A stretch of DNA of 55,518 nt from an uncultured Patescibacteria group bacterium (GCA_947259245.1 CAMYLP010000007.1:1-55518); one strand, 5' to 3'. Positions 3-19,537 are shown, numbered from the stretch's first letter. Notes: generated from the sequence alone by a model not told the origin. A program made the numbers and translations.

Positions 3-3000
3 GGGGCCAGTACACAATCAATCGGAGATGACTTTGAATGGGCAAACCTCAACCGTGACGTAGGGAGTGATGCAATTGCCGTCTGCTATATCGATGAGGA
101 TAATGACATTGGCGTCGTGCACTGGACCGGAGCTGCATGGGCGAACCAGCAAGAACTTGAGACTCTCGGTAACGCTGATACCGATCGTCCTGTTGACTGT
201 GCGTACGAGACAGAGGGTGCACGCAATGGGTACGTCATGGCGGTGTACAGTGATACAACGAACGTACGATACCAATCATGGAACGGAGCGACCTGGTCCG
301 GTGAAGCAAGTGTCTCGACCATTACTGACGCGAGCACTGTCCAAACGGCACGGAGCGACGACGGTCTTATCCTCGCGGTTGCCTTCGACGACGTGAACAG
401 CCAGTATGACTTCTCCTACTGGAACGGCTCTGTGTGGAGCAGCGCGCAGACACTTGAGACGAGTCCGTCGGTGACCGGCTCGCCATACAAGGAGCCGTTC
501 ATGATGGCACCTCGCAATAGTGCAGTTGCCGGTACACTGTATTCGCCCACGATCGATTTTGATGATGGGAACGGGCCGCAGTGGGACCAGGTATCATGGA
601 CCGACAGTGAACCTGGTAACAGTACGACGACCTACCAGGTCGAATACTACGACACCGCCTCCTCGAGTTGGAAGCTCGTGCCCGATGTCGATATACCCAA
701 TAACTCTGTGGGTACCACGACGGGCCCCATAGACATCAACAGCCTCAACACGACCACGTACAATGAGCTTCGCATCAAGGCGTACCTTGAGTGTGACCAG
801 AGCAGCAATTGCCCCGTCATCAATGACTGGACCGTCACGTGGTCTGAGGGTATCAACGTCAGCGGTATCGCACGTGAGTACGATCAGGTGACAAACGTCA
901 CCGCTGGCACCGTTGCCGTAGCAGTGAACGGTGCAGAACAGATAGGCAAGACTGGTTCCATCACCGCTGGCAACTGGACCATCAGCAACGTCACCACCTT
1001 CCCGGGTGACGTGGTCACCGTCTGGATAGACGGTGCTGGTGAGGCAAACGAAGCGGTCGCGGTCACCGTCTACGACGGCTCCGGACCGATCACCGGTATG
1101 ACGCTCTACGAACAGCACCTTAGTATCGGCTCGGACGACAATGCGACCACCACCAACCTAGAACTCGGCAGCTTTGACAACTCCGTCTCCGGTGATGAGG
1201 ATATATTCTTTGATGTCGATGCAAGTAACGACCTCTACGTCTGCGAGAGCGGGCAACCATCGTGCGGCAGTGAGCAGCTCTGGGTGCGTGATGGTTCGAC
1301 ATATGCGCCGAGCACATCGACCGCGGAGGTCATTCACACTCACGATATCGATATTGAGGGAACATTGGTTGCAAGCGGCAACACCTTCGAAGTTTCCGGT
1401 TCGTGGACCAACGACGGCATTTTCCTTGCTGACACCTCGAGCGTCATCTTTGATGCGACGTCCACGCTCGAGAGCATTGACTCCAGTACAGCAACGACAA
1501 GTGCGTTCAATAACGTGACGTTTGGCCAAGGTGCCTCGAACGCAACGTGGACACTTTCCTCGCTTTTGGATATCGATGGAACGCTCACTGCCACCTCCGG
1601 AGTGCTCGCACCGGGTGCAGGGTACGAGATAATGATCGCGGACGACCTTGTCATCGGGCCTACGGGCGTGTTCGTGAAGAGTACCGGCACCACGACCTTC
1701 GATGGTACGGGAACCAGCAACTGGAGTGATGCATCGAGCGGGCTCCAGGACATGGGTCTTGTCGTTGTCGATGGCAACAACAAGACCATTGCGCTCACGT
1801 CGGACGTGAAAGCAACGACTGTACTCGTAGGGGCGGATGACACGCTCGCGCTCGGTGGCTATACGCTCGAGTTGACCGGCAGCTTCGACAACAATGGAAC
1901 ACTCGTACCGCAGAACGGAGAGGTGCTCTTCAGCAGCACCGGTGGTGGCAACACCATCGACGCGGGTGCGTCCTCCTTCTACGACCTTACCTTCACTGGT
2001 GCGGGTGGTGCGTGGTCATTCCCGAGCGGCGAGGTGAGTGCCACAAACGACGTGACCATGACGAGCGGTACGGTGACCATGCCAACCGGCACCACGACCA
2101 TTGGCGGTTCGCTCCTCATTACGGGCGGTACGTTCGTGCACAACAACGGCCTTGTCTACTTCAACGCGGCAACCGCCGAGACCATTACAGCAAGCACGTC
2201 CGCCTTCTTTGACATGACCTTTAATGGCAGCGGCAGCTGGACGATGCAGGACACGGTCGCCACTTCGAGCAACGACGTGAGCCTGACCAGCGGTACCGTG
2301 ACATTCCCGACAGGCACGTTCAACATTGGGGGCTCGCTCACGACAAGTGCAGGTACGTTCGAGCATGCTACCGGCACCGTACGGTTCTACAGTACCGGCA
2401 CGGAGACGGTCAGTACCAACGGTTCCGCGTTCTACAACCTGCTTGTCGACGGGGCGAGTGGTGATATCACGCTCAGTGATACGAACGTTACCGTGGTCAA
2501 TGATGTCATTATACTCGCAGGGAACCTGAACCTACCGACCGGCACGCTCGATATCGCCGGCTCGCTCGACAGCGCGTTTGGTACGTTCTATCACGCTACC
2601 GGCACCGTAGCGTTCACATCGCTCGACACGGGCGAAACGGTTGAGACCGGTGGCTCGAACTTCTACAACGTGACCTTCAATAGTGCGACGGGCGGTTGGA
2701 CGGTTTCTGCGGATGCGACCAGTGAGAACGACTGGTCGCTTCAGAGCGCAGACACGTTCATAGCACCGAGTGGCGGCACCATCGAGGTTCAGGGTGACTT
2801 GACGAATCTTGTGGGCGGGGCGTCCACCACATGGTCCGGCAGCACGCTCTATCTGAACTCGGGGGCAACCTCGACCATCAACACCAAAACACAAGGTGCT
2901 GACAGCTATGCAACGCTACAACTTGGCGCAGACACCGACATCAAGATGTGGAACTCCACCTCAAGTACCTACACGGTCGACACTACGGGCTCGCTCTACT

Positions 3001-6000
3001 CCCAAGACCACGATGGGGTCGACGGAGACCTCTACATCTGGGGTACGTATGTACGCACCTCGGGTACCGAGTATTGGGCGTCCGCGACGGACTTTGACGG
3101 CACGAACCTCTCCGGAGGAAGTGAACGGTCAGTGCAGGTTCGGTTTGCCGATAGTGCGTATGCGACCATTACGGGTGCGACATTAGAGATACAGGGGACA
3201 AGCACCGCGACGACATCCGTTGCACACCAGGGGACGGGTGACTATGGTGTGACCGTCGAGGACGGTACGGTCAACGCACAGTACTACTCCTTCACGAACC
3301 TCGACGCAAACGGCTTCACCATTTCGGGCTCGTCCAGTATCACCTCGCTCGATAACGGACACTTTACGCTGACCCAGAACGGCGGAACGCTCATGCGCGT
3401 GTCCTCGAGTACCATTGACGCAAATCCCACGAAGCAGGTCTTCGTCCTTGGCTTTGCGACCACAAGCGCGATCACCGGCACGAACGTCGCTGTTGTGGGA
3501 ACGGCCCCATCATCGTACTGGACCTTCCGTGACCACTACGGCAACCTCGACGGTGAGGGGTACGACAACGACCCGGGCGGCAATCCGGGAGAACTCCGCT
3601 GGGATGACTCAGCCTTCGTCATTGCCGTCTCCGGTACGGTCTACAGTGGCGAGGGTGCAGGCGTACCAACCTTCTGCGATGGGGCGACACCGGTCGTATA
3701 CTTAAAGGTCGACGGTGCCGGGAGTTACAGTGCGAGCTGTGCGGCAGGCACCGGCGCGTACAGCATACCGAACGTGACCTTTAGCGGTGATGTGGTCTTG
3801 ACCGCGTACTTGAAGACGGCGGGCACTGAGGCGGCCACGGTCTCAAGAACGCCCAACGGCAACATTACCGACTTTGACCTGTACGAACGCCGCATTATTG
3901 TGAGGCATGAGGATGTGACGCCGCTCACCATCGAAGACATGTCCATCTTTGATGACACGGATGACCTTGATGTGCCGTTCATTGCGACGACCACCATCAT
4001 CCATCAGTTGCTCACAGAGCCGGACACCAAGCTCTACGTGTGGCAGAATAAGGAGTTTGCACCAGGTGGAGATGTCACACTGGAGTCCGGCGGCTCTGGG
4101 GCGAGCTATGATGGTTCCATACACTTGGCGGATAATGCGATCTTTACTGCTGCAAGTTCTGAGGAGCATAGCGTCGGAGGCTCATGGACAGCAGCCACCA
4201 GTTCCACGTTTGTACGCGCCGACTCGATCGTGACCTTCACAGCCACCACCAGCGGCAAGACCATTCAGCCGGCATCATCGTTCTTTGATGTTGAGTTCAA
4301 TGGCACCGGAGGCAGCTGGACCATTGCCTCGTCGACGACCATACGCGGCGAGCTGTTGTTGTCGGCAGGCACAGTGACGGGTACTGCCGACCTAACGGTA
4401 TTTGATGGACCAGTGACCGGTGACGGTGTGTTCAATATGACGGGTGGTGCTGTCACTCTACTTCACGGTGACTCCTTTGGTGGCAACAGTGACTGGACGT
4501 TCCATGACATCATCTTTGCGACGTCAACAGCAACCACAACAACCAAGGTGGGAACAGGAGACATCGTCATCGATGGCGAGCTCACGATAGGAGTCAACCA
4601 CACCCTCCAAGCCGGCTCGGTCGAATGGTTCTTCAGCGGGTCGGGTACTGTGCTCACTCACACTGGTACGTGGGCACCGCAAACATCGACCACAACGTAT
4701 AACGGTAACCTCGACACCACCATTGCTGCCGTCAACTACTATACGCTCCAAGCAGCACCAACATCCGGCTCACCAACATACACGGTAGAGACCGGTAATT
4801 TCACGGTGGACAAAGAATTCTTAGTCGGTGCGGGTGCTGCGGTGACTGTACAAGCAAACACCAACGATCCGCTCATCACGGTGCTTGGCGACATGACCAT
4901 AGCCGCAAATGCTACCTACGAGGCGGCAGGTGCAAATGACCTCTTCATTGGTGGGTCCTACGATAACAACGGTACGTTTGCGGCAAATGGCGGCGGTGTC
5001 ATCTTCAACAGCACCGACACCGGTGAGACGGTCTCCGCGGGAGGTAGCACGTTCCACCACATGGACTTCAAGAGTAGCACCGGCGGCTGGACCCTTACCG
5101 AGAGCGCGACGTCGACCGGCAATTTCTCCATAAGCTCCAGCTCGGATTGGACGTTGTCGAGTGGCGAGATACTTGAGGTGCAGGGTATGTTCACCAATCT
5201 CGTTGGTGGTGCATCGACCACGTGGACCGGTAGTACGCTGTACCTGAACTCGGGCACGAGCTACTCGGTCAACACACGAACAGATGCCGGTGACGCGTAT
5301 AGCACGCTCTCGGTTGGCGCGAATACGGACGTGCGCATGTGGTACAGCACAAGCACGAGCTTCAGTGTGAACGGCAGCGGCTCACTCTACTCACAGGACC
5401 ACGACGGTGTCGATGGTGACCTTTACATCTGGGGTGACTATGTAAGGAGCGCCGGCACCGACTATTGGAGTTGGGCGACCGACTTTGATGGTACAGACCT
5501 GTCCGGCGTTAGCGAGCGGGTTGTCGACGTGTACGTTGCAAGTGGCAGCACCATTACGCGCTCCGGTGGCACGCTTGAGATGCTCGGCACCTCGACCGCC
5601 ACCACGACGATACAGAACCAGGGCTCCGGCACGTACAGCTTCAATATCTCAGGCGGCACCATCAGCGCCCAGTACTACGCACTCAGAAACATGGACGCGA
5701 GCGGTCTCAATATCAGCGGCTCGCCTACGGTGACCTCGCTCTCTGATGGTAACCTCGAGCTGTCGGTTGACGCTGGGACACTTATCACCGTTGCCGCAAG
5801 TGTGATAACAGCCAATCCTTTGAAGATCATGTACAACAACCGGTTTGCCACCACGTCAGGTGTTACGACCGGCACGAACGTGACGGCAACGGGCGTGACC
5901 GGAAGCAGCTGGCGCTTCACAAGCCACTATGGCAACTTCGATGGTGAGGCGCTCGATGCTGATCCGGGTGGGGACCCAGGCTACATCATATGGGATGACT

Positions 6001-9000
6001 CAGCTGCGCAGATCACACTGTCTGGCTATGTATACGGCACGGATGAGGCAACGGTCTCGTCGGTCTGCGACGGTTCGACACCGGTCGTGCGGTTCCTCAT
6101 CAATGGTGCGAATCCCACGACCACAAGCTGTAACGCGGGCACCGGCCTCTACCAGTTCACCGGTATTGTGTACAATGTTGGCGACGTCTTTACGGTGTAT
6201 CTGGATACCAACGGCGGTGCGAAGGCAGCGAATGTGACCGTCGATCCGATCACGAACATTAACGACATGAACCTGTACGAGGACCGGCTCATTGTCCGTC
6301 ACGAAGGGGGTGACCCCATTACCATCGACGACCTTGATGCGTACGACGCTGACCAGGACGCTGACATTCTCTTCGACGCAGACGTTGGTAGTCCGGACAC
6401 GCTCACGCTCGATGCGGGAAGCAAGCTCATCGTCTGGGACAGTAAGACACTGGCCCCGGGCGGGGATGTGTCGGTCGCGCCACTCGGCGGCGGCACGAGT
6501 TACGATGGTACGCTCGAGCTTCAGGACGATGCTGGCTTTACCGCGGCGGGAACGGAGAGCCATACCGTTGGGGGAAGTTTTGAGAGCGGTACCGGAAGCT
6601 CACTTACCGCCGCGAATTCCACGTTCACGTTTACGGCGACGACGAGCGGCAAGACCATTGATTCCAATACGAGCGCATTTGCGAATATGGTGTTCAACGG
6701 AAGTGGCGGCGGTTGGACCTTTGTGGAGGGTGATGCGACCACGACAGGTGGTGTGACCATCACGAGCGGCACCGTGACACTTGCAACCAGTACGTTCGCT
6801 GTTGGTGGCTCACTGTCCAATAGTGATACGTTCAATGGCACAACGACCACATTTATCTTCACCGGAAGTGGCACGGAGACGATCACGTTCGGCGGGGATG
6901 ATGCCGGTTCGCTCGTCTTCACTGGATCTGGCTCATGGTCGATGCTCGATACCAACGCCACATCAACCGGGTCGGTCTCGATACAGTCGGGCACCGTCAC
7001 CCTGCCGAGTAGCACGCTTGCGGTACGTACGAGCTTTGACAATACTGGCGGGAGTTTCGTACAGACAGCCGGTACGTTGGAACTCTATGGTATAGAGGCA
7101 GCACAAACACTAACACTCGGTGGCAGCTCACTCGGCTCGCTCCTCGTGACCGGCTCCGGCTCATGGTCGTTTGTCGACACTGCAGCTACCACGACCGGTT
7201 CGGTGACGATTGCAAGCGGCGGGTTGATCGCGCCTGCAGCAGCGCTTGGTATCGGGGGGTCGCTTATTGCGAGCTCCACGTTCAACGCAAATGGCGGCAC
7301 GTTGTACTTCTTTGCGACCACGACCGGCCAGACGGTGGACCCTGGTGGTGCCACACTTGCTACCGTCATCTTTGAGGGCAGTGGAGGAGGATGGACGGTT
7401 GCCACGAGTGCAACATCAACAGGTGATTGGGTCTTACAGACGGGAGCGAGCTACACCATGGCAACAGGCACCGTTCTTGAGGTAGGCGGCATGTTCACAA
7501 ATGAGATAGGTGGAGCAGCGACAGACTGGACCGACAGCACGCTCTTCCTCAACGCATCGGGTACGACCTACAGCATCAACACAAAGACCTCCACCGGAGA
7601 TACGTATGCATTCCTCACTATCGGTGAGAATACCCACCTCTCCATGTGGAACTCGAGCGCGGCGACCACCACGACACAGACCAGCGCCTATCTCTACTCA
7701 CAGGATCACGGCAATAACGACGGCAGTCTGTATATCTATGGAATGTATGAACGAAGTACAGGTACTGAGCACTGGAGCTACGCGACTGACTTTGACGGTA
7801 CTGCGCTCGGTGGGAGCTCACGTGCAGTTGATGTCCGCATCGCCTCAAGCTCATCGGTGGTACTTACGGGTGGTGCGCTGAACATCGTAGGTGCCGTGGG
7901 CAACGTCACCGTTATTGATGTCATTACCTCGGGAGCATACGAGTTTAACGTTGACGGCGGTACGTTCAATGCAGAGCACTATAGCGTGTCAGGTACCGAC
8001 GCGCTGGGACTCAATTTCTCTGGAACACCAACCATTACAAACATGAACAATGGTACGTATACACTTACGACCAATGGTGGCACCATGATGAGAGTATCCT
8101 CCACAACGATAAATGCTAATCCGTCCCGCACTTTTTCAACACTATCGTTCTCCACAAGTACCGGTATCACGTCCGGGTACAACATCACGCGAGTTGGGAC
8201 GACCAGTAATATCTGGCAGTACGTGAACCATGCCGGAAATTATGATGGTGAGGACTTTGACAGTGATGGCGTGGACGCCTGTGGTCAAATACGGTGGAGC
8301 GACAGTGACTGTCTCGAGGTATCGCAGACACACTACCGCTTTAGGAACGATGACGGTGGTGAAGCGGCACCGGATAGCGAGTGGTACAATGCGAGCTGGT
8401 CCAAGCGTAAACCCATCAAGATTTATAATAGTGGAGGACCGGAGCTGACGAACTATGCCTTCGAGGTTGAGATTCCGTACGACAGTGACATGCAGGCAGA
8501 TTTCGACGACCTTCGGTTCACTGATGATTCTGGTACTACCTCGCTTTCGTACTGGTTTGAGGACGTTGCACTGTCTGCTACAGCGACCGCCTGGGTGAAA
8601 GTACCCACGGTAGAAGCGGACGGCGTGACTCGCATCTACGTGTATTACGGCAATGCGCTTGCAACGTCAGACGAGAATGGTGCCAACGTCTTCAGTTTCT
8701 TTGATGACTTCGAGGACAACAACATCACAGAGTACTCTGGCAGTGCGCAAGATATTTCCTACTTTGCTACAAATGCCTCATACAACTGGGAAGGGAGCTA
8801 TGGTTTGTCTGCTTCAGGCGGCAACACTGACAAACAAACCAATGGTGGTATCTATCGCACTGGTGCTGCATCAACCACGCAGGACTCCACCATCAGGTTC
8901 TTCCAAAAAATCACTGCCGGGACCGACGATGAACCGTGCACCCTGTTTGGTGTGCAGGGATCAGGCCAGAACTACGGTGTCTGTCTCGACCAATATACCA

Positions 9001-10604
9001 ACGATACGGTCACAATTTCTGAGAACATTACCAGCAACAGCGACGCGGGCGCCGCGACCGAACTAGCTACTACGTCCGTAACTTGGGCTACTGGGTGGTA
9101 CGAGGTTGAGATAGACTGGCTCTCCGATGACTCTATCAATGTTACCGTCTACGACGATACGGAGTCGGTCTTTGCGACAACGTCAGTGACCGACAGTACG
9201 TACAGTTCGGGAGGCATGGGATTTACGTTCTGGTTCCAGAACGAGGGTTGGGACTTTTACAGCGTTCGTCCATACGTGGCAAACGAGCCATCATACCGAA
9301 TCGGGCTCGAGCAGGGTGACAGTGGAGCAACATGGAAGGTAGCACAAGATACAATGCTCACAGGCCAGCCACCGAACGAGAACTTTCGATTGCGCTTCAT
9401 GGTGGAGAACACAGGTACCCAGATCAGTGGTCAGTACTGGCGCTTGCAGTATGCATCCAAGGGTGCATACGGCGCCTGTGAAGGAGTGCCTGATGTTGAC
9501 TACAACGATGTGCCCAACGCTTCCGGATGCGGAACATCACCCGTCTGTATGACCGCAAGTACACAAGTGACCGACGGGGAAGCGACAACGGAACACCTAT
9601 ATTCGGTACTCGATGGAGATTTTGTCGCAGGTGACGTTGTTGAGTCACCATCAAATCAAAGTGCATCCTCCACACTGGAGCAGAACAACATCACTGAAAT
9701 TGAGTACAGTATGGAGTTCACCGACTATGCGACAGACTCGAATTACTGCATGCGGACAACAAACGGCGGTGTGGAACTTGACACGTACCTACGTGTAGCG
9801 GAGGCTTCCGTCCGGTTTGCACCGGTCATCACGAACTGGAAGCTTAACCAGGATCAGAACATAAGTCTCATTGAAGGACAAACGGTCACGGTCTACGCTA
9901 CCGGTACCGTGAGCGACCTCAACGGTTACACCGACATTCTCTATGCAACCTCAACCATATACCGGAGCGGCGTGACCGACACCTGCAGTGAGGACCTCAA
10001 CAACTGCTACCGTCTGAACTCACTCGAGTGTCCACTCACCGGCTGCTCAGGCAACAGCTGTACCGTCGAATGCAGCGCTGATATTCAATTCTTTGCCGAG
10101 CCAACAGACGTCGGCAGCACCTATGCTGCAGAACATTGGGAAGCATACCTCTACGTCATTGACAGTACCAGCAACGTAGCAACCGATACCTCGGTTGCTG
10201 TGGACCTATACACCCTATGGGCACTCGCGCCTAAGACAGCGGAAATCCAGTATGGGACGCTTGGTGTGGGACAAGACACCGGTGCAGTTAACGCAAGCTC
10301 AACATTCCAAAACACCGGCAACGATACCATTGACATCACGGTTGAGGGTACGGACATGACCGCCGGTCCCAGCACAATTCCTGTTGCGAATCAAAAGTAC
10401 GCAACGTCAAGCTTCACCTACTCTGCATGTGCCATTTGCACAGCCCTTACAGGTACTGCAAGCACATTTGAGGTAGATCTGCCAAAACCTACAAGTACCA
10501 CGACTCCAATAACCGACGACCTGTACTGGGGAGTCTACGTGCCTACCGGGACGGCAGGTGTTGCACACTATGGGCTGAACACATTCTATGCAACAGGAGA
10601 TTAG
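3..10604 (+). CDS. Giant secreted/surface repeat protein, 5' end cut by the window edge (3,533 codons visible)
   Basis: Frame 3 is open from nt 3 to TAG 10602-10604. I translated nt 3-119 by hand and found no stop; the ORF-track start at 117 is an internal GTG. The protein is T/S/G-rich. It contains blade-like W repeats, beta-helix-like tandem repeats, three ~290-aa paralogous modules, a DUF2341-like plus LamG-like pair and a Cys-containing C-terminal module. Confidence 0.9.
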   Translation, partial: GASTQSIGDDFEWANLNRDVGSDAIAVCYIDEDNDIGVVHWTGAAWANQQELETLGNADTDRPVDCAYETEGARNGYVMAVYSDTTNVRYQSWNGATWSGEASVSTITDASTVQTARSDDGLILAVAFDDVNSQYDFSYWNGSVWSSAQTLETSPSVTGSPYKEPFMMAPRNSAVAGTLYSPTIDFDDGNGPQWDQVSWTDSEPGNSTTTYQVEYYDTASSSWKLVPDVDIPNNSVGTTTGPIDINSLNTTTYNELRIKAYLECDQSSNCPVINDWTVTWSEGINVSGIAREYDQVTNVTAGTVAVAVNGAEQIGKTGSITAGNWTISNVTTFPGDVVTVWIDGAGEANEAVAVTVYDGSGPITGMTLYEQHLSIGSDDNATTTNLELGSFDNSVSGDEDIFFDVDASNDLYVCESGQPSCGSEQLWVRDGSTYAPSTSTAEVIHTHDIDIEGTLVASGNTFEVSGSWTNDGIFLADTSSVIFDATSTLESIDSSTATTSAFNNVTFGQGASNATWTLSSLLDIDGTLTATSGVLAPGAGYEIMIADDLVIGPTGVFVKSTGTTTFDGTGTSNWSDASSGLQDMGLVVVDGNNKTIALTSDVKATTVLVGADDTLALGGYTLELTGSFDNNGTLVPQNGEVLFSSTGGGNTIDAGASSFYDLTFTGAGGAWSFPSGEVSATNDVTMTSGTVTMPTGTTTIGGSLLITGGTFVHNNGLVYFNAATAETITASTSAFFDMTFNGSGSWTMQDTVATSSNDVSLTSGTVTFPTGTFNIGGSLTTSAGTFEHATGTVRFYSTGTETVSTNGSAFYNLLVDGASGDITLSDTNVTVVNDVIILAGNLNLPTGTLDIAGSLDSAFGTFYHATGTVAFTSLDTGETVETGGSNFYNVTFNSATGGWTVSADATSENDWSLQSADTFIAPSGGTIEVQGDLTNLVGGASTTWSGSTLYLNSGATSTINTKTQGADSYATLQLGADTDIKMWNSTSSTYTVDTTGSLYSQDHDGVDGDLYIWGTYVRTSGTEYWASATDFDGTNLSGGSERSVQVRFADSAYATITGATLEIQGTSTATTSVAHQGTGDYGVTVEDGTVNAQYYSFTNLDANGFTISGSSSITSLDNGHFTLTQNGGTLMRVSSSTIDANPTKQVFVLGFATTSAITGTNVAVVGTAPSSYWTFRDHYGNLDGEGYDNDPGGNPGELRWDDSAFVIAVSGTVYSGEGAGVPTFCDGATPVVYLKVDGAGSYSASCAAGTGAYSIPNVTFSGDVVLTAYLKTAGTEAATVSRTPNGNITDFDLYERRIIVRHEDVTPLTIEDMSIFDDTDDLDVPFIATTTIIHQLLTEPDTKLYVWQNKEFAPGGDVTLESGGSGASYDGSIHLADNAIFTAASSEEHSVGGSWTAATSSTFVRADSIVTFTATTSGKTIQPASSFFDVEFNGTGGSWTIASSTTIRGELLLSAGTVTGTADLTVFDGPVTGDGVFNMTGGAVTLLHGDSFGGNSDWTFHDIIFATSTATTTTKVGTGDIVIDGELTIGVNHTLQAGSVEWFFSGSGTVLTHTGTWAPQTSTTTYNGNLDTTIAAVNYYTLQAAPTSGSPTYTVETGNFTVDKEFLVGAGAAVTVQANTNDPLITVLGDMTIAANATYEAAGANDLFIGGSYDNNGTFAANGGGVIFNSTDTGETVSAGGSTFHHMDFKSSTGGWTLTESATSTGNFSISSSSDWTLSSGEILEVQGMFTNLVGGASTTWTGSTLYLNSGTSYSVNTRTDAGDAYSTLSVGANTDVRMWYSTSTSFSVNGSGSLYSQDHDGVDGDLYIWGDYVRSAGTDYWSWATDFDGTDLSGVSERVVDVYVASGSTITRSGGTLEMLGTSTATTTIQNQGSGTYSFNISGGTISAQYYALRNMDASGLNISGSPTVTSLSDGNLELSVDAGTLITVAASVITANPLKIMYNNRFATTSGVTTGTNVTATGVTGSSWRFTSHYGNFDGEALDADPGGDPGYIIWDDSAAQITLSGYVYGTDEATVSSVCDGSTPVVRFLINGANPTTTSCNAGTGLYQFTGIVYNVGDVFTVYLDTNGGAKAANVTVDPITNINDMNLYEDRLIVRHEGGDPITIDDLDAYDADQDADILFDADVGSPDTLTLDAGSKLIVWDSKTLAPGGDVSVAPLGGGTSYDGTLELQDDAGFTAAGTESHTVGGSFESGTGSSLTAANSTFTFTATTSGKTIDSNTSAFANMVFNGSGGGWTFVEGDATTTGGVTITSGTVTLATSTFAVGGSLSNSDTFNGTTTTFIFTGSGTETITFGGDDAGSLVFTGSGSWSMLDTNATSTGSVSIQSGTVTLPSSTLAVRTSFDNTGGSFVQTAGTLELYGIEAAQTLTLGGSSLGSLLVTGSGSWSFVDTAATTTGSVTIASGGLIAPAAALGIGGSLIASSTFNANGGTLYFFATTTGQTVDPGGATLATVIFEGSGGGWTVATSATSTGDWVLQTGASYTMATGTVLEVGGMFTNEIGGAATDWTDSTLFLNASGTTYSINTKTSTGDTYAFLTIGENTHLSMWNSSAATTTTQTSAYLYSQDHGNNDGSLYIYGMYERSTGTEHWSYATDFDGTALGGSSRAVDVRIASSSSVVLTGGALNIVGAVGNVTVIDVITSGAYEFNVDGGTFNAEHYSVSGTDALGLNFSGTPTITNMNNGTYTLTTNGGTMMRVSSTTINANPSRTFSTLSFSTSTGITSGYNITRVGTTSNIWQYVNHAGNYDGEDFDSDGVDACGQIRWSDSDCLEVSQTHYRFRNDDGGEAAPDSEWYNASWSKRKPIKIYNSGGPELTNYAFEVEIPYDSDMQADFDDLRFTDDSGTTSLSYWFEDVALSATATAWVKVPTVEADGVTRIYVYYGNALATSDENGANVFSFFDDFEDNNITEYSGSAQDISYFATNASYNWEGSYGLSASGGNTDKQTNGGIYRTGAASTTQDSTIRFFQKITAGTDDEPCTLFGVQGSGQNYGVCLDQYTNDTVTISENITSNSDAGAATELATTSVTWATGWYEVEIDWLSDDSINVTVYDDTESVFATTSVTDSTYSSGGMGFTFWFQNEGWDFYSVRPYVANEPSYRIGLEQGDSGATWKVAQDTMLTGQPPNENFRLRFMVENTGTQISGQYWRLQYASKGAYGACEGVPDVDYNDVPNASGCGTSPVCMTASTQVTDGEATTEHLYSVLDGDFVAGDVVESPSNQSASSTLEQNNITEIEYSMEFTDYATDSNYCMRTTNGGVELDTYLRVAEASVRFAPVITNWKLNQDQNISLIEGQTVTVYATGTVSDLNGYTDILYATSTIYRSGVTDTCSEDLNNCYRLNSLECPLTGCSGNSCTVECSADIQFFAEPTDVGSTYAAEHWEAYLYVIDSTSNVATDTSVAVDLYTLWALAPKTAEIQYGTLGVGQDTGAVNASSTFQNTGNDTIDITVEGTDMTAGPSTIPVANQKYATSSFTYSACAICTALTGTASTFEVDLPKPTSTTTPITDDLYWGVYVPTGTAGVAHYGLNTFYATGD
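75..437 (+). repeat. Three ~50-aa blade-like repeats at the visible N-terminus of the giant protein
   Basis: IAVCYIDEDNDIGVVHWTGAAW / YVMAVYSDTTNVRYQSWNGATW / LILAVAFDDVNSQYDFSYWNGSVW recur about every 150 nt. The pattern runs into the window edge, so further units probably lie upstream. Confidence 0.6.
1500..2729 (+). repeat. Tandem ~76-aa beta-helix-like repeats (about five units) in the giant protein
   Basis: The motif S-[AS]-F-[FYN]-[DN]-[LMV]-T-F-x-G-x-G-x-W...T-S-G-T-V-T-x-P-T-G-T...G-G-S-L recurs at nt ~1500, 1971, 2199, 2427 and 2652. Confidence 0.7.
2730..3611 (+). repeat. Paralogous module A1 (~294 aa) of the giant protein
   Basis: Runs from DWSLQSADTF to ELRWDDS and aligns end to end with A2 and A3. 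It is followed (3612-3980) by a ~120-aa tail (VSGTVYSGEG..CDGATPVV..IVRHEDVTPLTIEDM) that also follows A2. Confidence 0.85.
5145..6002 (+). repeat. Paralogous module A2 (~286 aa) of the giant protein
   Basis: Runs from DWTLSSGEIL to YIIWDDS. By eye more than half of the residues are identical to A1. A tail at 6003-6383 (LSGYVYGTDE..CDGSTPVV..IVRHEGGDPITIDDL) parallels the A1 tail. Confidence 0.85.
6672..7424 (+). repeat. Second block of tandem ~75-aa beta-helix-like repeats (about four units)
   Basis: SAFANMVFNGSGGGW..TSGTVTLATSTFAVGGSL; SLVFTGSGSW..QSGTVTLPSSTLAV; SLLVTGSGSW..IASGGLIAPAAALGIGGSL; TVIFEGSGGGW. Confidence 0.7.
7425..8312 (+). repeat. Paralogous module A3 (~296 aa) of the giant protein
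   Basis: Runs from DWVLQTGASY to QIRWSDSDC. It is colinear with A1 and A2 but more diverged, and it lacks the B tail. Confidence 0.8.
8397..9270 (+). other. DUF2341-like domain followed by a LamG/concanavalin-A-like domain inside the giant protein
   Basis: The DUF2341 signature is WSKRKPIKIYN..LTNYAFEVEIPY..FDDLRFTDDSG..LSYWFE..AWVKVP..RIYVYYGN. It is followed by FFDDFEDNN..GWYEVEIDW..VTVYDD..GGMGFTFW, which has lectin/LamG-like strand patterns. Confidence 0.75.
9825..10601 (+). other. C-terminal ~259-aa Cys-containing module, paralogous to the C-terminus of the 624-aa protein
   Basis: Colinear shared motifs: SDLNGY / TDENGC; RSG; NNCY / NYCY; FAEPTDVGSTYAAEHW / IADPTDVGSEYPGEDW; IQYGTLGVG / IAYGSFQPG; NTGNDTID / NTGLDHYL; DDLYWGVYVP..AG.HYG.N / DDTYWGILVP..AGDYIGRN. 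Confidence 0.75.
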
Positions 10605-10678
10605 TAGACACAGTACGTATGATATGCACTATAAAGAGCAAGGAGACATGAACTCAGAACGTAGCACGACATAAACGT

Positions 10679-16626: not shown

Positions 16627-18093
16627 ATGCGTATACAGTTGCACCTTATTCCAGCTTTCACACTACTTCTAGCGCTAGCGTTCGTTATTGGCGGTGAGCG
16701 TCTGCTCGCGGACGATCCACCGGACATCACGAACGTACGCGTTGCGTCCAGTACTAACCATACTGCTACCATAACGTGGGAGACAGACAAGCCGGCTGAC
16801 TCTATTGTGAATTTCGGAAAGCAGCCGCACTACGGCATCATACGTGACCCAGGTACCGATAAGGAGACCCACAGCGTCACTCTTGATGATCTCGACTCGA
16901 GCACGATCTACCACTACCGCGTATCGTCAGCGGATGAACTCGGCAATCAGGCAGTCTCGGGGGACTTCGTTTTCATTACGGGTGGTTTTGAGAACATCGA
17001 CAACATTGAACAGGTGTCGTCCGTTGAACAACAGACACTGGTAGGACAGGCATCCGACGTGATATCCCAGATCACGGACCCGGAGGCACTTGCTATCGTA
17101 CAGACTGAGATACAGGCACAGGCACAAGACCTTTTACGTGCACCGGAGGTAATCGGTCAACCGCGTGCGATAGACATTGAGTCGACGCAAGCGACCATTA
17201 TATGGGCTACAAGCCGTGAGAGTAATTCGATCGTCCGCTACGCACCTGAGTCGCAGTGGAACGGTTCCGACTATGTGCAAACGGTGGCTGTTCTCGAGGA
17301 TGCAACGAAAGACCACCAGGTGATTCTTACGGGGTTAAATCCCGCGACAACCTATCATTTTCAAGTAGAAAGTGAGGACGAGTTCGGACTGTCAGGAGCG
17401 AGTGGCGACAATACATTCACCACTTCCTCACCAGTACCAACGATAGAAGACGTGCAGATAATAAAGATCGAGGAAGATTCAGCCACATTCGCCTGGTCCA
17501 CGGATATTCCAGCGGCAGGCGCTGTCATATATGAGAACACCGCAACTGGTGAAATCCGCTCTGAGGGCAGCCCTGAATTTTTAAGTACTCAAACAGTGCG
17601 TTTGACGGACCTCACGCTAGGCGTTACGTACGTTGCCATTGTGCGTGCCGAGAACGAGCAGGGTGAGGAGCGCGAGAGTGAGCAGATCACATTCACTACG
17701 GTACGCGATGAGGAACCCCCCATCATCAGTCGAGTCAACAATGAGAGCACACTTTTCCCAGGCGCCGAGACACGTATTCAGACCATCGTCTCATGGGGGA
17801 CGGATGAGCCGAGCTACTGCACCATGCGCTACAGTCAGGGATTGGCCCCCGCAGAAGACGCCAACGAGATAGAGGCAAATACAGAACCTACGGTTGACCA
17901 CGTTCGCGTGCTGACAGAGTTTCTACCATCGACAGTATACAAGTTTTGGGTGGTGTGTGAGGACCGTTCGGGCAATGAGGAACGCTCGGAGGACTTTGTG
18001 CTGTTCACACCAGAAAAGGAGAAAAGCATCATTGATATCATTCTGGAAAACTTCGAGGGGACCTTCGGATGGGTAAAGAATATTGGCGGCTAG
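16627..18093 (+). CDS. Secreted protein with four fibronectin-type-III-like modules
   Basis: It has a signal/anchor segment (LIPAFTLLLALAFVIGG). There are four ~90-aa modules of the type ATITWETDKPADSIVNFG...HSVTLDDLDSSTIYHYRVSS.DELGN. Its stop (18091-18093) abuts the ATG of the ABC ATPase gene. Confidence 0.85.
   Translation: MRIQLHLIPAFTLLLALAFVIGGERLLADDPPDITNVRVASSTNHTATITWETDKPADSIVNFGKQPHYGIIRDPGTDKETHSVTLDDLDSSTIYHYRVSSADELGNQAVSGDFVFITGGFENIDNIEQVSSVEQQTLVGQASDVISQITDPEALAIVQTEIQAQAQDLLRAPEVIGQPRAIDIESTQATIIWATSRESNSIVRYAPESQWNGSDYVQTVAVLEDATKDHQVILTGLNPATTYHFQVESEDEFGLSGASGDNTFTTSSPVPTIEDVQIIKIEEDSATFAWSTDIPAAGAVIYENTATGEIRSEGSPEFLSTQTVRLTDLTLGVTYVAIVRAENEQGEERESEQITFTTVRDEEPPIISRVNNESTLFPGAETRIQTIVSWGTDEPSYCTMRYSQGLAPAEDANEIEANTEPTVDHVRVLTEFLPSTVYKFWVVCEDRSGNEERSEDFVLFTPEKEKSIIDIILENFEGTFGWVKNIGG
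16725..18010 (+). repeat. Four tandem Fn3-like modules
   Basis: Module cores: TITWETD..YHYRV; TIIWATS..YHFQV; TFAWSTD..YVAIV; TIVSWGTD..YKFWV. Confidence 0.75.
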
Positions 18094-18094
18094 T

Positions 18095-19537
18095 ATGAGA
18101 AGCATCATCACAACAAGCGATGTGGACGTCACCTACAATAAAGGTCAGACGAACGAGTTCAAAGCGCTGAAGGGCGTCACCTGTGAAATTGCTTCACGCG
18201 AGTACATCATTTTCTTTGGCCCGTCCGGGTGTGGTAAATCGACGTTACTCTATAGTATTTTTGGTGTTCTTGAACCATCGGCAGGAGAAGTGATGGTGAA
18301 GGGTGATTCCATCTATAAGTATGAACCCATGGAGTTGGTGATGTACCAGCGAAAGACGATGGGCATTATGTACCAGTCGTTCAACCTCATACCATCACTG
18401 ACAGTGTTGGATAACGTGCAGCTCCCCCTTATCTTCGCCGGATTTCCACCAGTAACGCGTGAGCGCCGTGCGATGGAGCTCCTTGACCGATTTGGTATTG
18501 CTCACGTCGCACACAAACGACCGGCACTCCTTTCAGGTGGTCAACAGCAACGTGTATCTGTCGCGCGCAGCCTTGTGAATGATCCAGAGATTCTCATTGC
18601 CGATGAACCGGTGGGTAACCTTGACTTCGTTTCTGCGGAAGCCGTTATGAATACACTCGAAGAGATCAATCAGAACGATAAGAAGACCGTGCTTCTGGTT
18701 ACCCACGACGCGAAGTATCTGCCGTACGCGCACCGCGTGTTCTACCTCGACTATGGCAAGATAGATCGCATCGTACCAAATCCTGAGAAGCGACAGATCA
18801 TCAAGGTACGACCGGGTGAGACGATCGTGACCGAGATAGAGCAGCTTGCGCGCATCTATCCCTATGACACACCTGAACAATTGCGAGTGAAGTCACTCAT
18901 CAACTTCCTCACGCAGAGTCTCTCATTTGACCAAATAGTTCGTTTGGAGAAGATGACTCAGCATGTCATTGAAGGTGTCTTGTCCGAGGATCAGTTTCGC
19001 ACATTGTTAACGACAGACTACGAGGAGGGTGGTTGTGGCATCAAGCCAAAACAGGCCGAGGAAATGACACACAAAATGTTCCAGGTACTTGAACAAAGTC
19101 AGGACGTGGTACGTTTTCGTCGCGTGCATCGTGATCAAACAACCATCGATCTGGCGCGCTTTGAGCTCATCAAACACATACACACCCACATGGTAGGTGA
19201 GTATAAGGTCGAACCCGATTCACGTGAACTGGAACAACTCACAAAAATGGTCACCAACAGAGTATACGGGTATATCACGCGTGAAGAATTTCATCGACAA
19301 TTGAGATTACCGTTTGAAGAGGGTGGTGGGGGCTTTGACATCTACCTGGCCGCAGACCTTTCCCGGTACCTCGAAAAGCTCATTGCACAGGGAGTCTCAC
19401 ACTTTGTACAACACCAGGAGTCAAAGCCGGAGTCGACAAACCTGCACGCCAAACAGGCGGAGAAGTTTGAGGAAATAGACAAAGGTCTCTTTGGTCGTCT
19501 GACGCACATCTTGGCAAAAAAGAAACAAAACGCGTAA
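18095..19537 (+). CDS. ABC transporter ATP-binding protein (MacB/LolD-like) with a ~250-aa C-terminal extension
   Basis: Walker A GPSGCGKST, signature LSGGQQQRV, Walker B ILIADEP, H-loop VTHD. I prefer the ATG at 18095 (TAGTATG junction) over the TTG at 18083. The ATPase core ends near aa 235. Confidence 0.9.
   Translation: MRSIITTSDVDVTYNKGQTNEFKALKGVTCEIASREYIIFFGPSGCGKSTLLYSIFGVLEPSAGEVMVKGDSIYKYEPMELVMYQRKTMGIMYQSFNLIPSLTVLDNVQLPLIFAGFPPVTRERRAMELLDRFGIAHVAHKRPALLSGGQQQRVSVARSLVNDPEILIADEPVGNLDFVSAEAVMNTLEEINQNDKKTVLLVTHDAKYLPYAHRVFYLDYGKIDRIVPNPEKRQIIKVRPGETIVTEIEQLARIYPYDTPEQLRVKSLINFLTQSLSFDQIVRLEKMTQHVIEGVLSEDQFRTLLTTDYEEGGCGIKPKQAEEMTHKMFQVLEQSQDVVRFRRVHRDQTTIDLARFELIKHIHTHMVGEYKVEPDSRELEQLTKMVTNRVYGYITREEFHRQLRLPFEEGGGGFDIYLAADLSRYLEKLIAQGVSHFVQHQESKPESTNLHAKQAEKFEEIDKGLFGRLTHILAKKKQNA
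18944..19383 (+). repeat. Internal duplication in the ATPase C-terminal extension
   Basis: LEKMTQHVIEGVLSEDQFRTLLTTDYEEGGCGIKPKQAEEMTHKMFQVLE (from 18944) aligns with LEQLTKMVTNRVYGYITREEFHRQLRLPFEEGGGGFDIYLAADLSRYLEKL (from 19229). The two units start 95 codons apart. Confidence 0.7.

Follow-up and report, generated by a model that had tools for sequence, protein, structure and literature searches.

CPR bacteria (Patescibacteria) represent a large share of bacterial diversity, have genomes of roughly 1 Mb, and seem to live attached to other cells. To our knowledge, the contact molecules are known only from a few cultivated Saccharibacteria, and we know of no cultivated representative of the class Paceibacteria other than Minisyncoccus. 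A 55,518-nucleotide stretch of DNA from an uncultured Patescibacteria group bacterium (here called the window) begins inside a very long reading frame, which an initial annotation, made from the sequence alone, described as a truncated modular surface protein of at least 3,533 aa. The locus raises the questions of whether this frame belongs to a real and intact gene, how long the whole protein is, and what it may do at the cell surface.

Reading frame, integrity, and size

Forward frame 3 runs without interruption from nt 3 to 10601; its 3,533 sense codons are followed by a double stop (translation of nt 3 to 10607); the other two forward frames contain 102 and 185 stops across the same interval. 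The chance of an open frame of 3,533 codons, estimated from base composition, is approximately 1e-60. The frame is thus open from the first in-frame codon, as first described. Its 5′ end has neither a start codon nor an N-terminal signal, which means that the window edge truncates the gene. This, too, had been proposed, with the signal sequence placed upstream; orthologous frames run 2,100 to 3,100 aa further upstream and begin with a Sec-type N terminus. The visible frame is the last 3,533 residues of a real gene and is intact within the window.

Intact orthologues are 4,851 aa (locus L007), 6,431 aa (L009), and 6,569 aa (protein P0139, locus L015) long. By alignment, residue 1 of the visible protein maps to residue 2,892 of the L009 protein and approximately to residue 2,895 of P0139. 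In full, the protein probably comprises about 6,400 aa, with about 2,900 aa lying upstream and the window covering the C-terminal ~55%. The initial annotation was right to call the protein giant, but its minimum of 3,533 aa is almost two-fold too low.

That the frame is an assembly chimera of repeats, or a pseudogene with a merely intact look, is barely credible. The orthologue is indeed broken by frameshifts or stops near module A3 (described below) in three relatives, L001 to L003. The window frame, however, has no stop, and DNA copies of its repeats are only 70 to 75% identical to each other (72 to 73% for repeats D2/D3, in the second beta-helix-like block), which argues against a collapsed or chimeric repeat assembly. 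The protein is also collinear with several independently assembled intact orthologues, and its module copies mostly group with same-position copies from other genomes. Collapsed repeats and an interrupted frame, the two hazards named in the initial annotation, therefore do not apply to the window. The frameshifts in L001 to L003 have the appearance of sequencing indels or of recent decay. In L003 they are two isolated 1-nt shifts, and L002 is fragmented throughout, its MacB gene included; for both assemblies this points to indel errors. We also rejected the idea that module A3 holds a conserved split or programmed frameshift, since the breakpoints differ among the three loci, two of which are affected as just described, and at least 7 other orthologues are intact across this region. 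Foreign origin was likewise rejected. The GC content of the gene is 56% versus approximately 52% elsewhere, and its GC3 of 0.647 is slightly above the range of other genes (0.51 to 0.62), but the excess comes mainly from second-position GC, reflecting a Thr/Gly/Ser/Ala-rich composition.

Domain architecture and family

The visible gene contains the following features, all on the + strand:

3..512, +, W-rich beta-propeller-like array, C-terminal blades (aa 1-170; the window begins inside this domain)
528..1202, +, two beta-rich domains (aa 176-290, weak fn3-like signal; aa 291-400, Ig-like)
1350..2702, +, first beta-helix-like block (76-aa repeats of approximately three rungs each; aa ~450-900)
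2700..4382, +, module A1, core aa 900-1214 plus tail aa 1215-1460 (self-BLAST, AF2)
4383..5090, +, spacer with further beta-helix-like units (aa 1461-1696)
5091..6779, +, module A2, core aa 1697-2011 plus tail aa 2012-2259 (self-BLAST)
6648..7397, +, second beta-helix-like block (76-aa repeats; aa ~2216-2465; self-BLAST)
7398..8354, +, module A3, core only, without tail (aa 2466-2784)
8397..8726, +, DUF2341 beta-sandwich (aa ~2799-2908; AF2 pLDDT >90)
8727..9275, +, ConA/LamG-type lectin-fold domain (aa ~2909-3091; invariant Cys 2979 and Cys 2994)
9291..9767, +, middle Ig-like beta-sandwich (aa ~3097-3255; AF2 strands at cassette residues 318-476)
9795..10601, +, C-terminal module, two Ig-like sandwiches (aa 3265-3533; AF2)
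10602..10607, +, tandem stop codons ending the gene (translation)

The module order first reported was correct. Comparison with relatives, as the initial annotation had suggested, found it kept segment by segment in collinear matches from L004 to L013 and in P0134, P0135, P0139, and P0140. The family order is propeller, fn3-like, Ig, beta-helix, two or three copies of module A, DUF2341, LamG-like, Ig, and C-terminal module. For homology searches, the C-terminal cassette (the last 754 aa) and module A were queried separately. Named homologues covering the cassette all come from CPR lineages except P0070, a partial protein labelled Bacteroidota, and the loci found with the N-terminal region (L004 to L014) belong to Paceibacterota, Kaiserbacteria, or MAGs labelled Saccharibacteria. 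A search of representatives returned proteins of up to 7,622 aa ending in the same C-terminal module. Judged by sequence comparison, the giant is a member of a conserved, uncharacterized family of 4.8- to 7.6-kaa secreted surface proteins of Paceibacteria/Kaiserbacteria.

The closest giants are P0139 (6,569 aa; ENA contig, L015), to which the visible protein is 61% identical, the L009 open reading frame (ORF) (Ca. Paceibacterota Gw_Eff_bin_92), P0134 (7,456 aa), P0140 (6,835 aa), and a protein of at least 6,810 aa from Kaiserbacteria RIFCSPLOWO2_01_FULL_45_25 (L011). They share the domain order over all 3,533 visible residues at 51 to 61% identity, as well as the C-terminal cassette and the downstream island. 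Module A is present in two copies in L007 and three in the others, P0139 has an additional DUF2341+LamG unit inserted within module A1, and the N-terminal halves differ in unit number. A cluster look-up of the best giant orthologues returned no names or described functions.

The visible protein has no transmembrane segment, is Thr/Gly/Ser-rich, and shows the extracytoplasmic traits of a very acidic pI (4.05) and invariant cysteines. Pfam and NCBIfam scans recognized no enzyme domain in it, and NCBIfam gave no match at all. Pfam run per segment at an E value of ≤10 gave only noise (fn3, 0.007; RskA_C, 0.004), and Pfam found no catalytic, TPS, pilin, or SLH domain in the visible protein or in the N-terminal halves of two orthologues. 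Orthologue N termini consist of a basic stretch, a hydrophobic stretch, and an AXA-like site, a Sec-type arrangement followed by a conserved IHVFPT motif. The AXA-like sites suggest that this N-terminal signal is cleaved.

These N termini bear on the idea of a type IV pilus tip adhesin (PilY1-like) or a pilin-like protein, which is very improbable overall; pilin-like identity is largely refuted. DUF2341 has been linked to pilus-tip adhesins (PMC4858521), such a role has been proposed for large DUF2341 proteins in archaeal T4P loci, and several shorter DUF2341 homologues (P0080, P0083, and P0087), one of them from Minisyncoccus, carry a prepilin N-methylation motif. The orthologues, however, lack the N_methyl motif PF07963 (Pfam) in their Sec-type N termini, the pilin-bearing matches share the DUF2341 segment only (13 to 15% coverage), and no pilus assembly genes are found in the 55-kb window or in syntenic loci.

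W-containing repeats of approximately 50 aa, initially placed at nt 75 to 437, are present, with autocorrelation peaks at lags 99 and 52 in aa 1-170. This segment matches no Pfam family in the per-segment scan and is 41 to 55% identical to the orthologue segment; orthologues carry more blades upstream, so that aa 1-170 is the C-terminal part of a longer propeller-like array. The next two domains (aa 176-290 and 291-400) occur in all orthologues at 45 to 65% identity. The fn3 signal of the first is weak (E = 0.007, Pfam per segment); the second is related to the module A tail, with aa 304-394 resembling aa 1232-1319 in self-BLAST.

Self-comparison by fragment-based BLAST also recovered both blocks of ~76-aa repeats noted in the initial annotation. 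In block 1, successive units match with E values down to 5e-34, show lag-76 autocorrelation, and are in register on an F[YF][ND][LMV] motif. The second block lies at approximately aa 2189-2503 (lag-76 peak, 0.44). The spacer between modules A1 and A2 likewise holds such units, as had been reported, since aa 1547-1700 aligns to the block 1 repeats. Short-strand rungs are seen in the flanks of module A in the AF2 model.

Module A is present in the three copies initially named, 45 to 62% identical to each other, with E values down to 1e-55 in fragment self-BLAST: aa 826-1459 matches aa 1622-2259, and the core recurs at aa 2392-2784. A1 carries a conserved SLYSQDH...DGDLYIWG...ATDFDG motif in its core and has a tail made of an Ig-like sandwich, one helix, and then beta-helix rungs. 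A2 is 50 to 62% identical to A1 over approximately 635 aa and groups with second-position copies of L012 and L011; A3 is 45 to 55% identical to the A1 and A2 cores and groups with last-position copies of L012, L011, and L007. Among 23 module A homologues, all those with a named organism come from CPR. The AF2 model of aa 826-1460 is confident (pLDDT 90.5, pTM 0.80), but Foldseek against PDB and BFVD gave no match at an E value of ≤1e-3, and profile searches of the cassette and module A alignments against PDB sequences found nothing. Module A is a family-specific knob that interrupts the beta-helix-like repeats three times. Its core has an invariant acidic/His motif, SQDH...DFDG...R, whose Asp and His residues could be catalytic or metal binding.

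C-terminal cassette and surrounding island

The C-terminal 754 aa are modelled by AF2 (pLDDT 93.9) as five beta-sandwiches: DUF2341, a ConA/LamG fold, and three Ig-like domains. The per-domain structure prediction advised in the initial annotation is thus confident for both the cassette and module A. The cassette has cysteines that are invariant in an alignment of 51 homologues, including C380, C397, C403, and C470 (cassette numbering) in the middle Ig-like domain. PF10102 (DUF2341) matches aa 2833-2908 with an E value of 1.1e-22 and 80.7 bits against a gathering cut-off of 23.4. Of the DUF2341-like plus LamG-like pair first proposed, DUF2341 is therefore upheld by Pfam, and the LamG-like partner by fold and not by sequence family. 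No Pfam LamG or ConA-like model matches the whole protein (E ≤ 0.1) or aa 2931-3100 alone (E ≤ 10), so the LamG-like call rests on fold. The domain is a curved two-sheet beta-sandwich of jelly-roll type (AF2 pLDDT >90) superposable on known members, with a Foldseek probability of 1.00 both to CBM66 (4b1m; TM on target, 0.58 to 0.65) and to 1ux6, 3fby, and 5z5d (thrombospondin/COMP C-terminal domains and a GH43 accessory sandwich). Single-domain matches only were used for this assignment; whole-cassette Foldseek ranked generic multi-sandwich chains first (alpha-2-macroglobulin, complement, integrin, and mastigoneme), which were treated as uninformative.

These likenesses allow an enzymatic reading, in which the beta-helix and module A act like a tailspike depolymerase or pectate-lyase and DUF2341/LamG serve as carbohydrate-binding modules. 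We consider it quite improbable. The top structural neighbours of module A, all non-significant, are tailspikes and pectate-lyase-superfamily proteins, its core motif is invariant, the LamG-like domain resembles CBM66 and GH43 accessory domains, and in some homologues DUF2341 is joined with GH43 or BNR sialidase-like domains in one protein. However, no catalytic Pfam or NCBIfam family appears even at an E value of ≤10 on segments, nor any in the N-terminal halves of orthologues; every module A Foldseek match has an E value of >1e-3 and low probability; and three divergent catalytic copies in one shaft would be unusual.

The Cys-containing C-terminal module (the last 269 aa) that the initial annotation described is real and conserved, although no Pfam model exists for it and no real Pfam match was obtained. 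Six cysteines at aa 3328-3357 form an invariant cluster in it, and its CxxC at aa 3476-3479 is likewise invariant. Conservation is 60 to 70% in the C-terminal cassette versus 45 to 50% in the N-terminal pieces. The module occurs in 1,280 representative clusters at an E value of ≤1e-3 and is terminal in approximately 139 (~93%) of the best 150 of these, in proteins of 263 to 7,622 aa with unrelated N-terminal parts. Another copy is encoded in the window, next to conserved neighbours:

16627..20750, +, secreted fn3-repeat protein (16627-18093), ABC ATPase, and MacB/FtsX-type (type VII ABC) permease (19542-20750) (Pfam, NCBIfam)
20883..22757, +, 624-aa paralogue with an N-terminal hydrophobic signal/anchor and the same C-terminal module (BLASTP)

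The C terminus of this paralogue matches aa ~3265-3523 of the giant (BLASTP, E = 7e-17). The gene adjoins the ABC/MacB pair and has the same position in L001, L002, L003, and L015; in L016, a 613-aa module-bearing protein is encoded directly upstream of fn3-ABC-MacB. The fn3-ABC-MacB order itself is syntenic in L001 to L003, L007, L015, and L016. Compared with L001, L002, L003, and L015, the neighbourhood shares the fn3 protein, ABC ATPase, MacB/FtsX permease, ~620-aa paralogue, and DUF4215/dockerin genes, and the window has four additional genes between the giant and the fn3 gene. The conserved island as a whole holds cohesin, dockerin, fn3, Ig, and ABC/MacB genes, among them membrane-anchored cohesin-like proteins and Dockerin_1 proteins at 23817-25205 and 28760-29470; cohesin-like proteins are encoded at 25132-26322 and 26303-28126. 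The giant was first said to head a ~31-kb surface island, but relatives have cohesin/dockerin genes upstream as well, placing it inside the island. Targeting by a DGR was rejected: the 55.5-kb window has no direct repeat of >75% identity, and no RT is found among the scanned ORFs. Scans for tRNAs, Rfam families, and terminators added nothing.

The terminal position and company of this module suit a self-anchored envelope fibre, which we regard as possible, if on the unlikely side. Here, the 269-aa module would be a sorting or anchoring tag to the cell's own surface, targeting a wall polymer, cohesin-like membrane proteins, or the MacB-type ABC; the rest would be coat or spacer, with any binding elsewhere, e.g., in the N-terminal half with its propeller and LamG units. 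Besides the module's terminal position in proteins of unrelated N-terminal parts, its place among the most conserved segments of the giant, and the nearby cohesin-like proteins, a second module-bearing protein adjoins ABC/MacB in every orthologous locus, and cleavage at the AXA-like site, which is possible, would remove the proposed N-terminal anchor. However, no known anchoring motif (LPXTG, SLH, LysM, or dockerin) is present: Dockerin_1 (Pfam) and a C-terminal LPXTG with transmembrane segment are absent from the giant, and SLH is absent from it and from orthologue N-terminal halves. The receptor-binding tips of phage fibres and of pilus adhesins are typically terminal as well, a lectin-fold head directly before the module suits a distal binding end, and the synteny comes from few independent arrangements.

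A stricter version, distinctly unlikely, takes the last 269 aa as an undescribed C-terminal sorting/anchoring domain, possibly CPR-specific, recognized by a co-encoded apparatus. Candidate recognizers would be the type VII (MacB/FtsX-like) ABC with the fn3 protein, the membrane-anchored cohesin-like proteins, or both. If so, the domain would mark a whole class of surface proteins (>1,000 clusters, 263 to 7,622 aa) as the monoderm ultra-small counterpart of LPXTG/sortase or the T9SS C-terminal domain, and module A would be a new fold class of shaft knob.

The C terminus and its neighbourhood also bear on a two-partner-secretion FhaB-CdiA-like exoprotein or SPEARE-like effector conduit. FhaB domains occur in other giant Patescibacteria proteins (PMC11809585), and a secretion-conduit role has been suggested for giant proteins of DPANN (PMC10266531). 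For the giant, such a role is extremely unlikely: no TPS, FhaB, toxin, or ATPase domain is found in the visible protein or the N-terminal ~2,800 to 2,900 aa of two orthologues, the C terminus is a conserved Ig-like tandem and not a variable toxin tip, and the gene lists show no immunity-like small-gene pattern, the next gene encoding a conserved 228-aa protein.

Proposed function and comparison with known systems

A host-specific binding tip is often where an adhesin varies most. In the giant, no part is more conserved than the cassette, and the last module of the cassette is almost always strictly C-terminal, a pattern that suits a tag for anchoring, sorting, or assembly no less than a host-specific tip. 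Even so, the whole is probably best explained as a host- or glycan-binding adhesin fibre on the cell surface, most likely used to attach to other cells. The protein would be exported by Sec, held at or near the surface by its N terminus or via neighbouring cohesin/dockerin-type proteins, and extend outward as a shaft of some tens of nanometres. At its far end, the lectin-type head and disulfide-rich terminal module would bind a glycan or surface structure of a host or partner, tethering the episymbiont to that cell. The fn3 protein, type VII ABC transporter, and 624-aa paralogue probably work together with the giant in one surface apparatus.

The family offers a conserved, easily recognized gene of approximately 20 kb in a roughly 1-Mb genome. 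It supplies expressible pieces: a confidently modelled lectin-type head, a C-terminal domain of >1,000 clusters, and module A, which has no structural relative. If the head's ligand or the terminal module's partner were defined, host recognition or surface display in Paceibacteria could be tested directly. Many database entries of the type "~1,000-aa DUF2341 protein, partial" are fragments of 5- to 7-kaa genes.

Analogy supports an adhesin role. In a Saccharibacterium, epibiotic growth requires lectin-like and dockerin-containing envelope proteins (PMC10633639), and host attachment is the role generally inferred for giant CPR surface proteins (PMC8080830, PMC11809585). The initial annotation held that giant DUF2341/LamG proteins are a known feature of small-genome bacteria and archaea with undefined function, which matches the literature (PMC11809585, PMC8080830, PMC10266531). 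The Patescibacterium danicum paper counts giant (>4,000 aa) DUF2341 and/or FhaB proteins in Patescibacteria (PMC11809585). These share phylum, size class, DUF2341, and an inferred adhesion or host-interaction role with the giant; the paper gives a count and no defined family, and the FhaB domains of its focal proteins are absent from the giant.

Among more distant systems, CBM66 and the thrombospondin/COMP C-terminal L-type lectin share the fold of aa ~2909-3091 (probability 1.00), but at 15 to 17% sequence identity and with no Pfam LamG/CBM match. Beta-helical adhesins and tailspikes (Ag43, Fap2, CBA120 TSP1, and the colanidase tailspike) are the nearest, weak and non-significant, neighbours of module A (E ≥ 0.002, low probability). 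The giant has no autotransporter beta-barrel and no evidence of trimerization, and its organism is presumably monoderm; the layout of a beta-solenoid shaft with a terminal binding region is shared. Giant membrane proteins are described in the CPR predator Vampirococcus (PMC8080830), and giant LamG/ConA-like surface proteins of the nanohaloarchaeal SPEARE type in DPANN archaea (PMC10266531). SPEARE proteins have a VirB4-like ATPase that the giant's family lacks, and no sequence relationship to the DPANN or Vampirococcus giants was detected beyond shared domain superfamilies. In all of them, however, ultra-small episymbionts commit a large share of the genome to giant Sec-exported lectin/Ig surface proteins that are presumed to bind the host.

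Reading frame and full-length relatives

The frame-3 gene studied here (the giant; nt 3-10601, forward strand) yields 3,533 sense codons and then a double stop when translated from nt 3 to 10607. Stops number 102 and 185 in the other two forward frames of this stretch, and the chance of an open frame this long, from base composition, is about 1e-60. Because the frame is already open at its first full codon, the window edge cuts the gene short, as the initial annotation had stated; a mechanical ORF list begins it at a GTG at nt 117 solely because ORFs running off the source go unlisted. The visible product (369 kDa, pI 4.05), numbered here from its first visible residue, consists of 14.9% Thr, 11.5% Gly, and 10.8% Ser, with 11.3% Asp plus Glu versus 2.7% Lys plus Arg. 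It contains 26 cysteines, mostly paired or clustered, and no membrane-helix-like stretch in 19-residue windows. The GC content is 56%, versus about 50 to 53% in neighbors. Foreign origin is not indicated, since the excess lies mainly at codon position 2 (0.52 versus 0.34 to 0.46 in most other genes), an effect of amino acid composition, and GC3 is barely raised (0.647 versus 0.51 to 0.62).

The last 754 aa (the cassette, comprising DUF2341, LamG-like, and Ig-like domains and a C-terminal module) matched 73 proteins at E values of ≤1e-140, with 55 to 100% cassette coverage and 39 to 72% identity. The named homologues belong to Minisyncoccia, Paceibacterota/Pacebacteria, Parcubacteria, and Kaiserbacteria (CPR), the one exception being P0070, an incomplete protein with a Bacteroidota label. 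Numerous matches of ~800 to 1,300 aa are marked "partial" and represent contig-end fragments. Database records of the type "DUF2341 domain-containing protein, ~1,000 aa" (P0034, P0036, and P0059) are C-terminal pieces of giant genes. The same search recovered a complete short relative (P0057; 1,291 aa) that contains a signal peptide, DUF3494 (an ice-binding-like beta-helix), an Ig-like stretch, the second half of the module A core (module A being the giant's repeated knob unit), and the full cassette; the DUF2341-to-C-terminus cassette is thus portable and used on different shafts.

With the first 330 aa as the query and one genome per species scanned, 11 loci (L004 to L014) were found at 37 to 52% identity. 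The five loci listed below all have the segment order of the giant.

Stop-to-stop frame lengths at five loci in other genomes
L009: 6,431 aa, intact
L007: 4,851 aa, intact
L011 (Kaiserbacteria RIFCSPLOWO2_01_FULL_45_25): at least 6,810 aa, runs off the locus
L012: at least 6,180 aa, runs off the locus
L013: at least 5,560 aa, runs off the locus

Giant residues 1 to 3,533 correspond, segment by segment, to residues 2,892 to 6,431 of L009. Searching the whole library by HMMER, with the last 269 aa as the query, added further full-length proteins (5,354 to 7,622 aa). The closest of them, P0139 (locus L015; 6,569 aa, 61% identity), is collinear, with giant residue 1 near its residue 2,895; its gene is uninterrupted and lies on a 112-kb contig. 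Because giant residue 1 aligns with approximately residue 2,892 to 2,895 of its orthologues, about 2,900 residues lie upstream of the window, and these alignments indicate that the whole protein is probably ~6,400 aa long.

In the orthologues, a basic N-terminal segment leads into about 20 hydrophobic residues and an AXA-like site, after which comes the conserved motif E-(E/Q)-R-x-IHVFPT-x-V-x(3)-GW; this N terminus may be a Sec signal peptide or signal anchor. Their N-terminal halves contain acidic linkers, more DUF2341/LamG-type and fn3-like units, and W-rich propeller-like arrays, the last of which is where the window begins. Pfam detected Ig/fn3-type domains alone in these halves and no TPS/FhaB, prepilin, SLH, or enzyme family, leaving the pilin and TPS/toxin readings unsupported.

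Repeated modules and predicted folds

Fragment-wise self-BLAST revealed a ~635-aa unit at aa 826 to 1459 that recurs at aa 1622 to 2259 with 43 to 62% identity, and a third copy, of the ~390-aa core alone, at aa 2392 to 2784 (modules A1, A2, and A3, the tail being present on A1 and A2 only). Self-BLAST also placed 76-aa periodic repeats, matched by an autocorrelation peak at lag 76, at aa ~450 to 900, at aa ~2189 to 2503, and in the A1-A2 spacer, and it showed that aa 304 to 394 resemble the Ig-like portion of the module A tail. DUF2341 is the sole Pfam match (aa 2833 to 2908; E value, 1e-22). Pfam searches with each segment alone (E value, ≤10) gave noise beyond DUF2341, and an NCBIfam scan gave no match. 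Self-BLAST, autocorrelation, and Pfam agree with the module anatomy initially described. The repeat copies are only 70 to 75% identical in DNA, with no closer repeat anywhere in the 55.5-kb window, so the collapsed or chimeric assembly raised initially as a concern is unlikely. With the frame intact and the repeats diverged, an artefact reading is unsupported, as is a DGR-target reading, given that the repeat search of the window found nothing closer.

In a neighbor-joining tree of module A cores, A1, A2, and A3 of the giant mostly lie beside the same-position copies of L012, L011, and L007, which indicates that the triplication is old. The L009 and L010 cores show some within-genome grouping and L007 has two copies rather than three, so copy number and content change over time. 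P0139 carries an extra DUF2341 plus LamG-like unit inside module A1 (by eye, protein residues about 3,990 to 4,290); this inserted unit and the L007 copy number are evidence of domain insertion and loss in the family.

Orthologues of the giant are called as several ORFs in three MAGs (L001 to L003). L002 is fragmented genome-wide, with its MacB gene also split; L003 contains two isolated single-nucleotide frameshifts (8670 and 9930) in otherwise collinear coding sequence; and in L001 (9540 to 10000) the frame changes once and, over ~260 nt, no frame is free of stops. The breaks in L001, L002 (1 to 10000), and L003 lie just before the last module A. A conserved split is rejected because the breakpoints differ and at least seven other orthologues are intact; the breaks are read as probable indel errors or lineage-specific decay. 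ORF interruption, the other concern raised initially, thus affects these three loci but not the giant in the window.

The module A model (aa 826 to 1460; 24 sequences) has a pLDDT of 90.5 and a pTM of 0.80 and is ordered as beta-helix rungs, a large beta core, an Ig-like sandwich, one helix, and rungs again. Foldseek searches of PDB and BFVD gave no match at E values of ≤1e-3; the nearest, nonsignificant neighbors were tailspikes, pectate-lyase-type helices, Ag43/Fap2 adhesins, and cohesin/X-module-like sandwiches. An enzyme reading is unsupported, given these nonsignificant matches and no catalytic Pfam or NCBIfam match.

The cassette model, built from a 51-sequence alignment, is all-beta (mean pLDDT, 93.9; pTM, 0.74), and its strand pattern resolves five beta-sandwiches.

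Beta-sandwiches of the cassette model
aa ~2799-2908: DUF2341 (Pfam PF10102)
aa ~2909-3091: ConA/LamG-type, 13 strands
aa ~3097-3255: Ig-like, invariant cysteines
aa 3266-3397: C-terminal module, sandwich 1, invariant six-Cys cluster
aa 3408-3533: C-terminal module, sandwich 2, invariant CxxC

Foldseek of the whole cassette against PDB returned generic sandwich strings and nothing else, and sequence profiles of the cassette and module A gave no PDB match. Single domains matched CBM66 (TM 0.65 on target), thrombospondin/COMP C-terminal lectin domains, and GH43 accessory sandwiches at a probability of 1.00. The predicted structure confirms the ConA/LamG-type lectin fold that sequence models miss, bearing out the LamG-like domain first proposed beside DUF2341. 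By alignment position (alignment A1), the invariant cysteines comprise two in the LamG-like domain, four in the middle Ig-like domain, the six-Cys cluster (C-x6-C-x7-C-x4-C-x4-C-x3-C), and the CxxC, a pattern as expected for disulfide-stabilized extracytoplasmic domains.

Gene neighborhood and the C-terminal module

Genes following the giant
10691-11377: 228-aa protein
11434-13983: 849-aa Big_13/TSP3 protein, C-terminal membrane helix
13970-15400: histidine kinase
16627-18093: secreted fn3-repeat protein
18083-19537, forward: ABC ATPase
19542-20750, forward: MacB/FtsX-type (type VII ABC) permease
20883-22757, forward: 624-aa paralogue of the giant's terminal module
22880-24028, forward: 382-aa membrane protein
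23817-25205, forward: DUF4215/Big_6/dockerin protein
25132-26322 and 26303-28126: two cohesin-like proteins, C-terminal membrane helices
28760-29470, reverse: dockerin protein
30118-31350, forward: CPHC thioredoxin-like membrane protein

From about 34 kb onward, the genes are housekeeping genes. L001, L002, L003, and L015 share the core order giant, fn3, ABC, MacB, ~620-aa paralogue, ~310-aa protein, and DUF4215/dockerin, and in L007 the fn3 gene directly follows the giant. The initial annotation placed the giant at the head of a surface island; in relatives, a cohesin-like gene directly precedes the giant, with dockerin and HSP20 genes farther upstream, so the giant lies inside the island. 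The cohesin/dockerin set (23817-29470) suggests a membrane-anchored display scaffold in a CPR genome; family members in L015 and L017 have comparable genes beside them.

The ABC ATPase has a ~250-aa C-terminal extension past the ABC domain with, by eye, two similar (Y/F)EEGG(C/G)G motifs, and the ABC/MacB pair (18083-20750) has no equivalog-level family match. With its mechanical TTG start, the 462-aa ORF at 23817-25205 would reach about 210 nt into the gene before it; the true start is probably an internal Met ahead of the hydrophobic stretch MVYIERVGWRAPKTLFVLIVACLVV. The 410-aa protein at 30118-31350 has a signal-like N terminus, a CPHC motif, a multihelix membrane domain, and faint family matches, and could be an extracytoplasmic disulfide system beside an island rich in invariant-cysteine proteins. 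The gene at 31462-32946 (forward), overlapped by spurious antisense ORFs, encodes a protein of 494 aa that is extremely acidic (rich in Asp and Glu) and has a hydrophobic segment at its N terminus. The block at 36586-51117 encodes a DUF4147/MOFRL-domain protein, pyruvate phosphate dikinase, enolase, SMC, RNase R, and a ribonucleotide reductase with ATP-cone and B12-dependent (class II-type) insertion domains. Scans of the whole 55.5 kb for tRNA genes and Rfam families were negative.

The C-terminal module (aa 3265 to 3533), covered by no Pfam model, matched 1,280 representative clusters (50% identity level) at E values of ≤1e-3, 941 at ≤1e-10, and 249 at ≤1e-30, in proteins of 263 to 7,622 aa. 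Among the best 150 of the 1,280 clusters, the match ends a few residues from the protein C terminus in about 139. The 624-aa paralogue, which has an N-terminal hydrophobic segment, is a second copy in the window (C-terminal ~300 aa, 28% identity to the giant's end; E value, 7e-17); it directly follows the ABC/MacB pair in L001 to L003 and occurs as split ORFs in L015. Distant short members include a 613-aa protein immediately 5′ of fn3, ABC, and MacB/FtsX (L016), an 866-aa protein adjoining dockerin, HSP20, and cohesin plus Big_13 genes (L017), and a 1,117-aa protein followed by a DUF2341 plus BNR protein (L018). In comparisons with the four full-length giants, conservation is highest in the cassette and terminal module (up to 70%, versus 38 to 51% for the first two pieces). 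This high conservation, the strictly terminal place on >1,000 otherwise unrelated proteins, and the linkage to ABC/MacB and cohesin genes favor the main rival to a binding-tip reading, namely, that the module could be an anchoring or sorting tag.

Proposed role and comparison with known systems

The giant gene is conserved and intact. Its very large product is acidic, all-beta, and cysteine-paired, bears no enzyme signature, and combines a repetitive solenoid-like shaft with three knobs specific to the family, a head of lectin fold, and a conserved module at its end. The orthologues have Sec-type N termini, and the giant lies among exported cohesin/dockerin/fn3/Ig-type genes and a type VII ABC transporter. 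From the fold, the context, and knowledge of episymbiotic CPR bacteria, we propose that it is probably a cell-surface fiber tethering the bacterium to a partner cell, in which the DUF2341/LamG-type head and terminal module would bind glycans. A beta-helix rises about 0.48 nm per rung; at three rungs per 76 aa and about 4 nm per sandwich, the visible protein could, as a rough estimate, span some tens of nanometers.

The family is common in public metagenomes and nameless in every source queried, and no description of its architecture was found in the literature searched. Of modest novelty are the full ~6.4-kaa architecture with its conserved island, a repeated module predicted confidently to fold without a structural relative, and a widespread, unnamed, strictly C-terminal domain. 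The literature agrees with the initial statement that giant lectin-domain surface proteins of ultrasmall symbionts are a known feature of undefined function. In a Saccharibacterium, Tn-seq identified lectin-like and dockerin-containing envelope proteins as essential for epibiotic growth (PMC10633639). Giant surface proteins of Vampirococcus were proposed as attachment factors (PMC8080830), as were giant DUF2341/FhaB proteins across Patescibacteria (PMC11809585), and archaeal DUF2341 proteins are proposed pilus-tip adhesins (PMC4858521).
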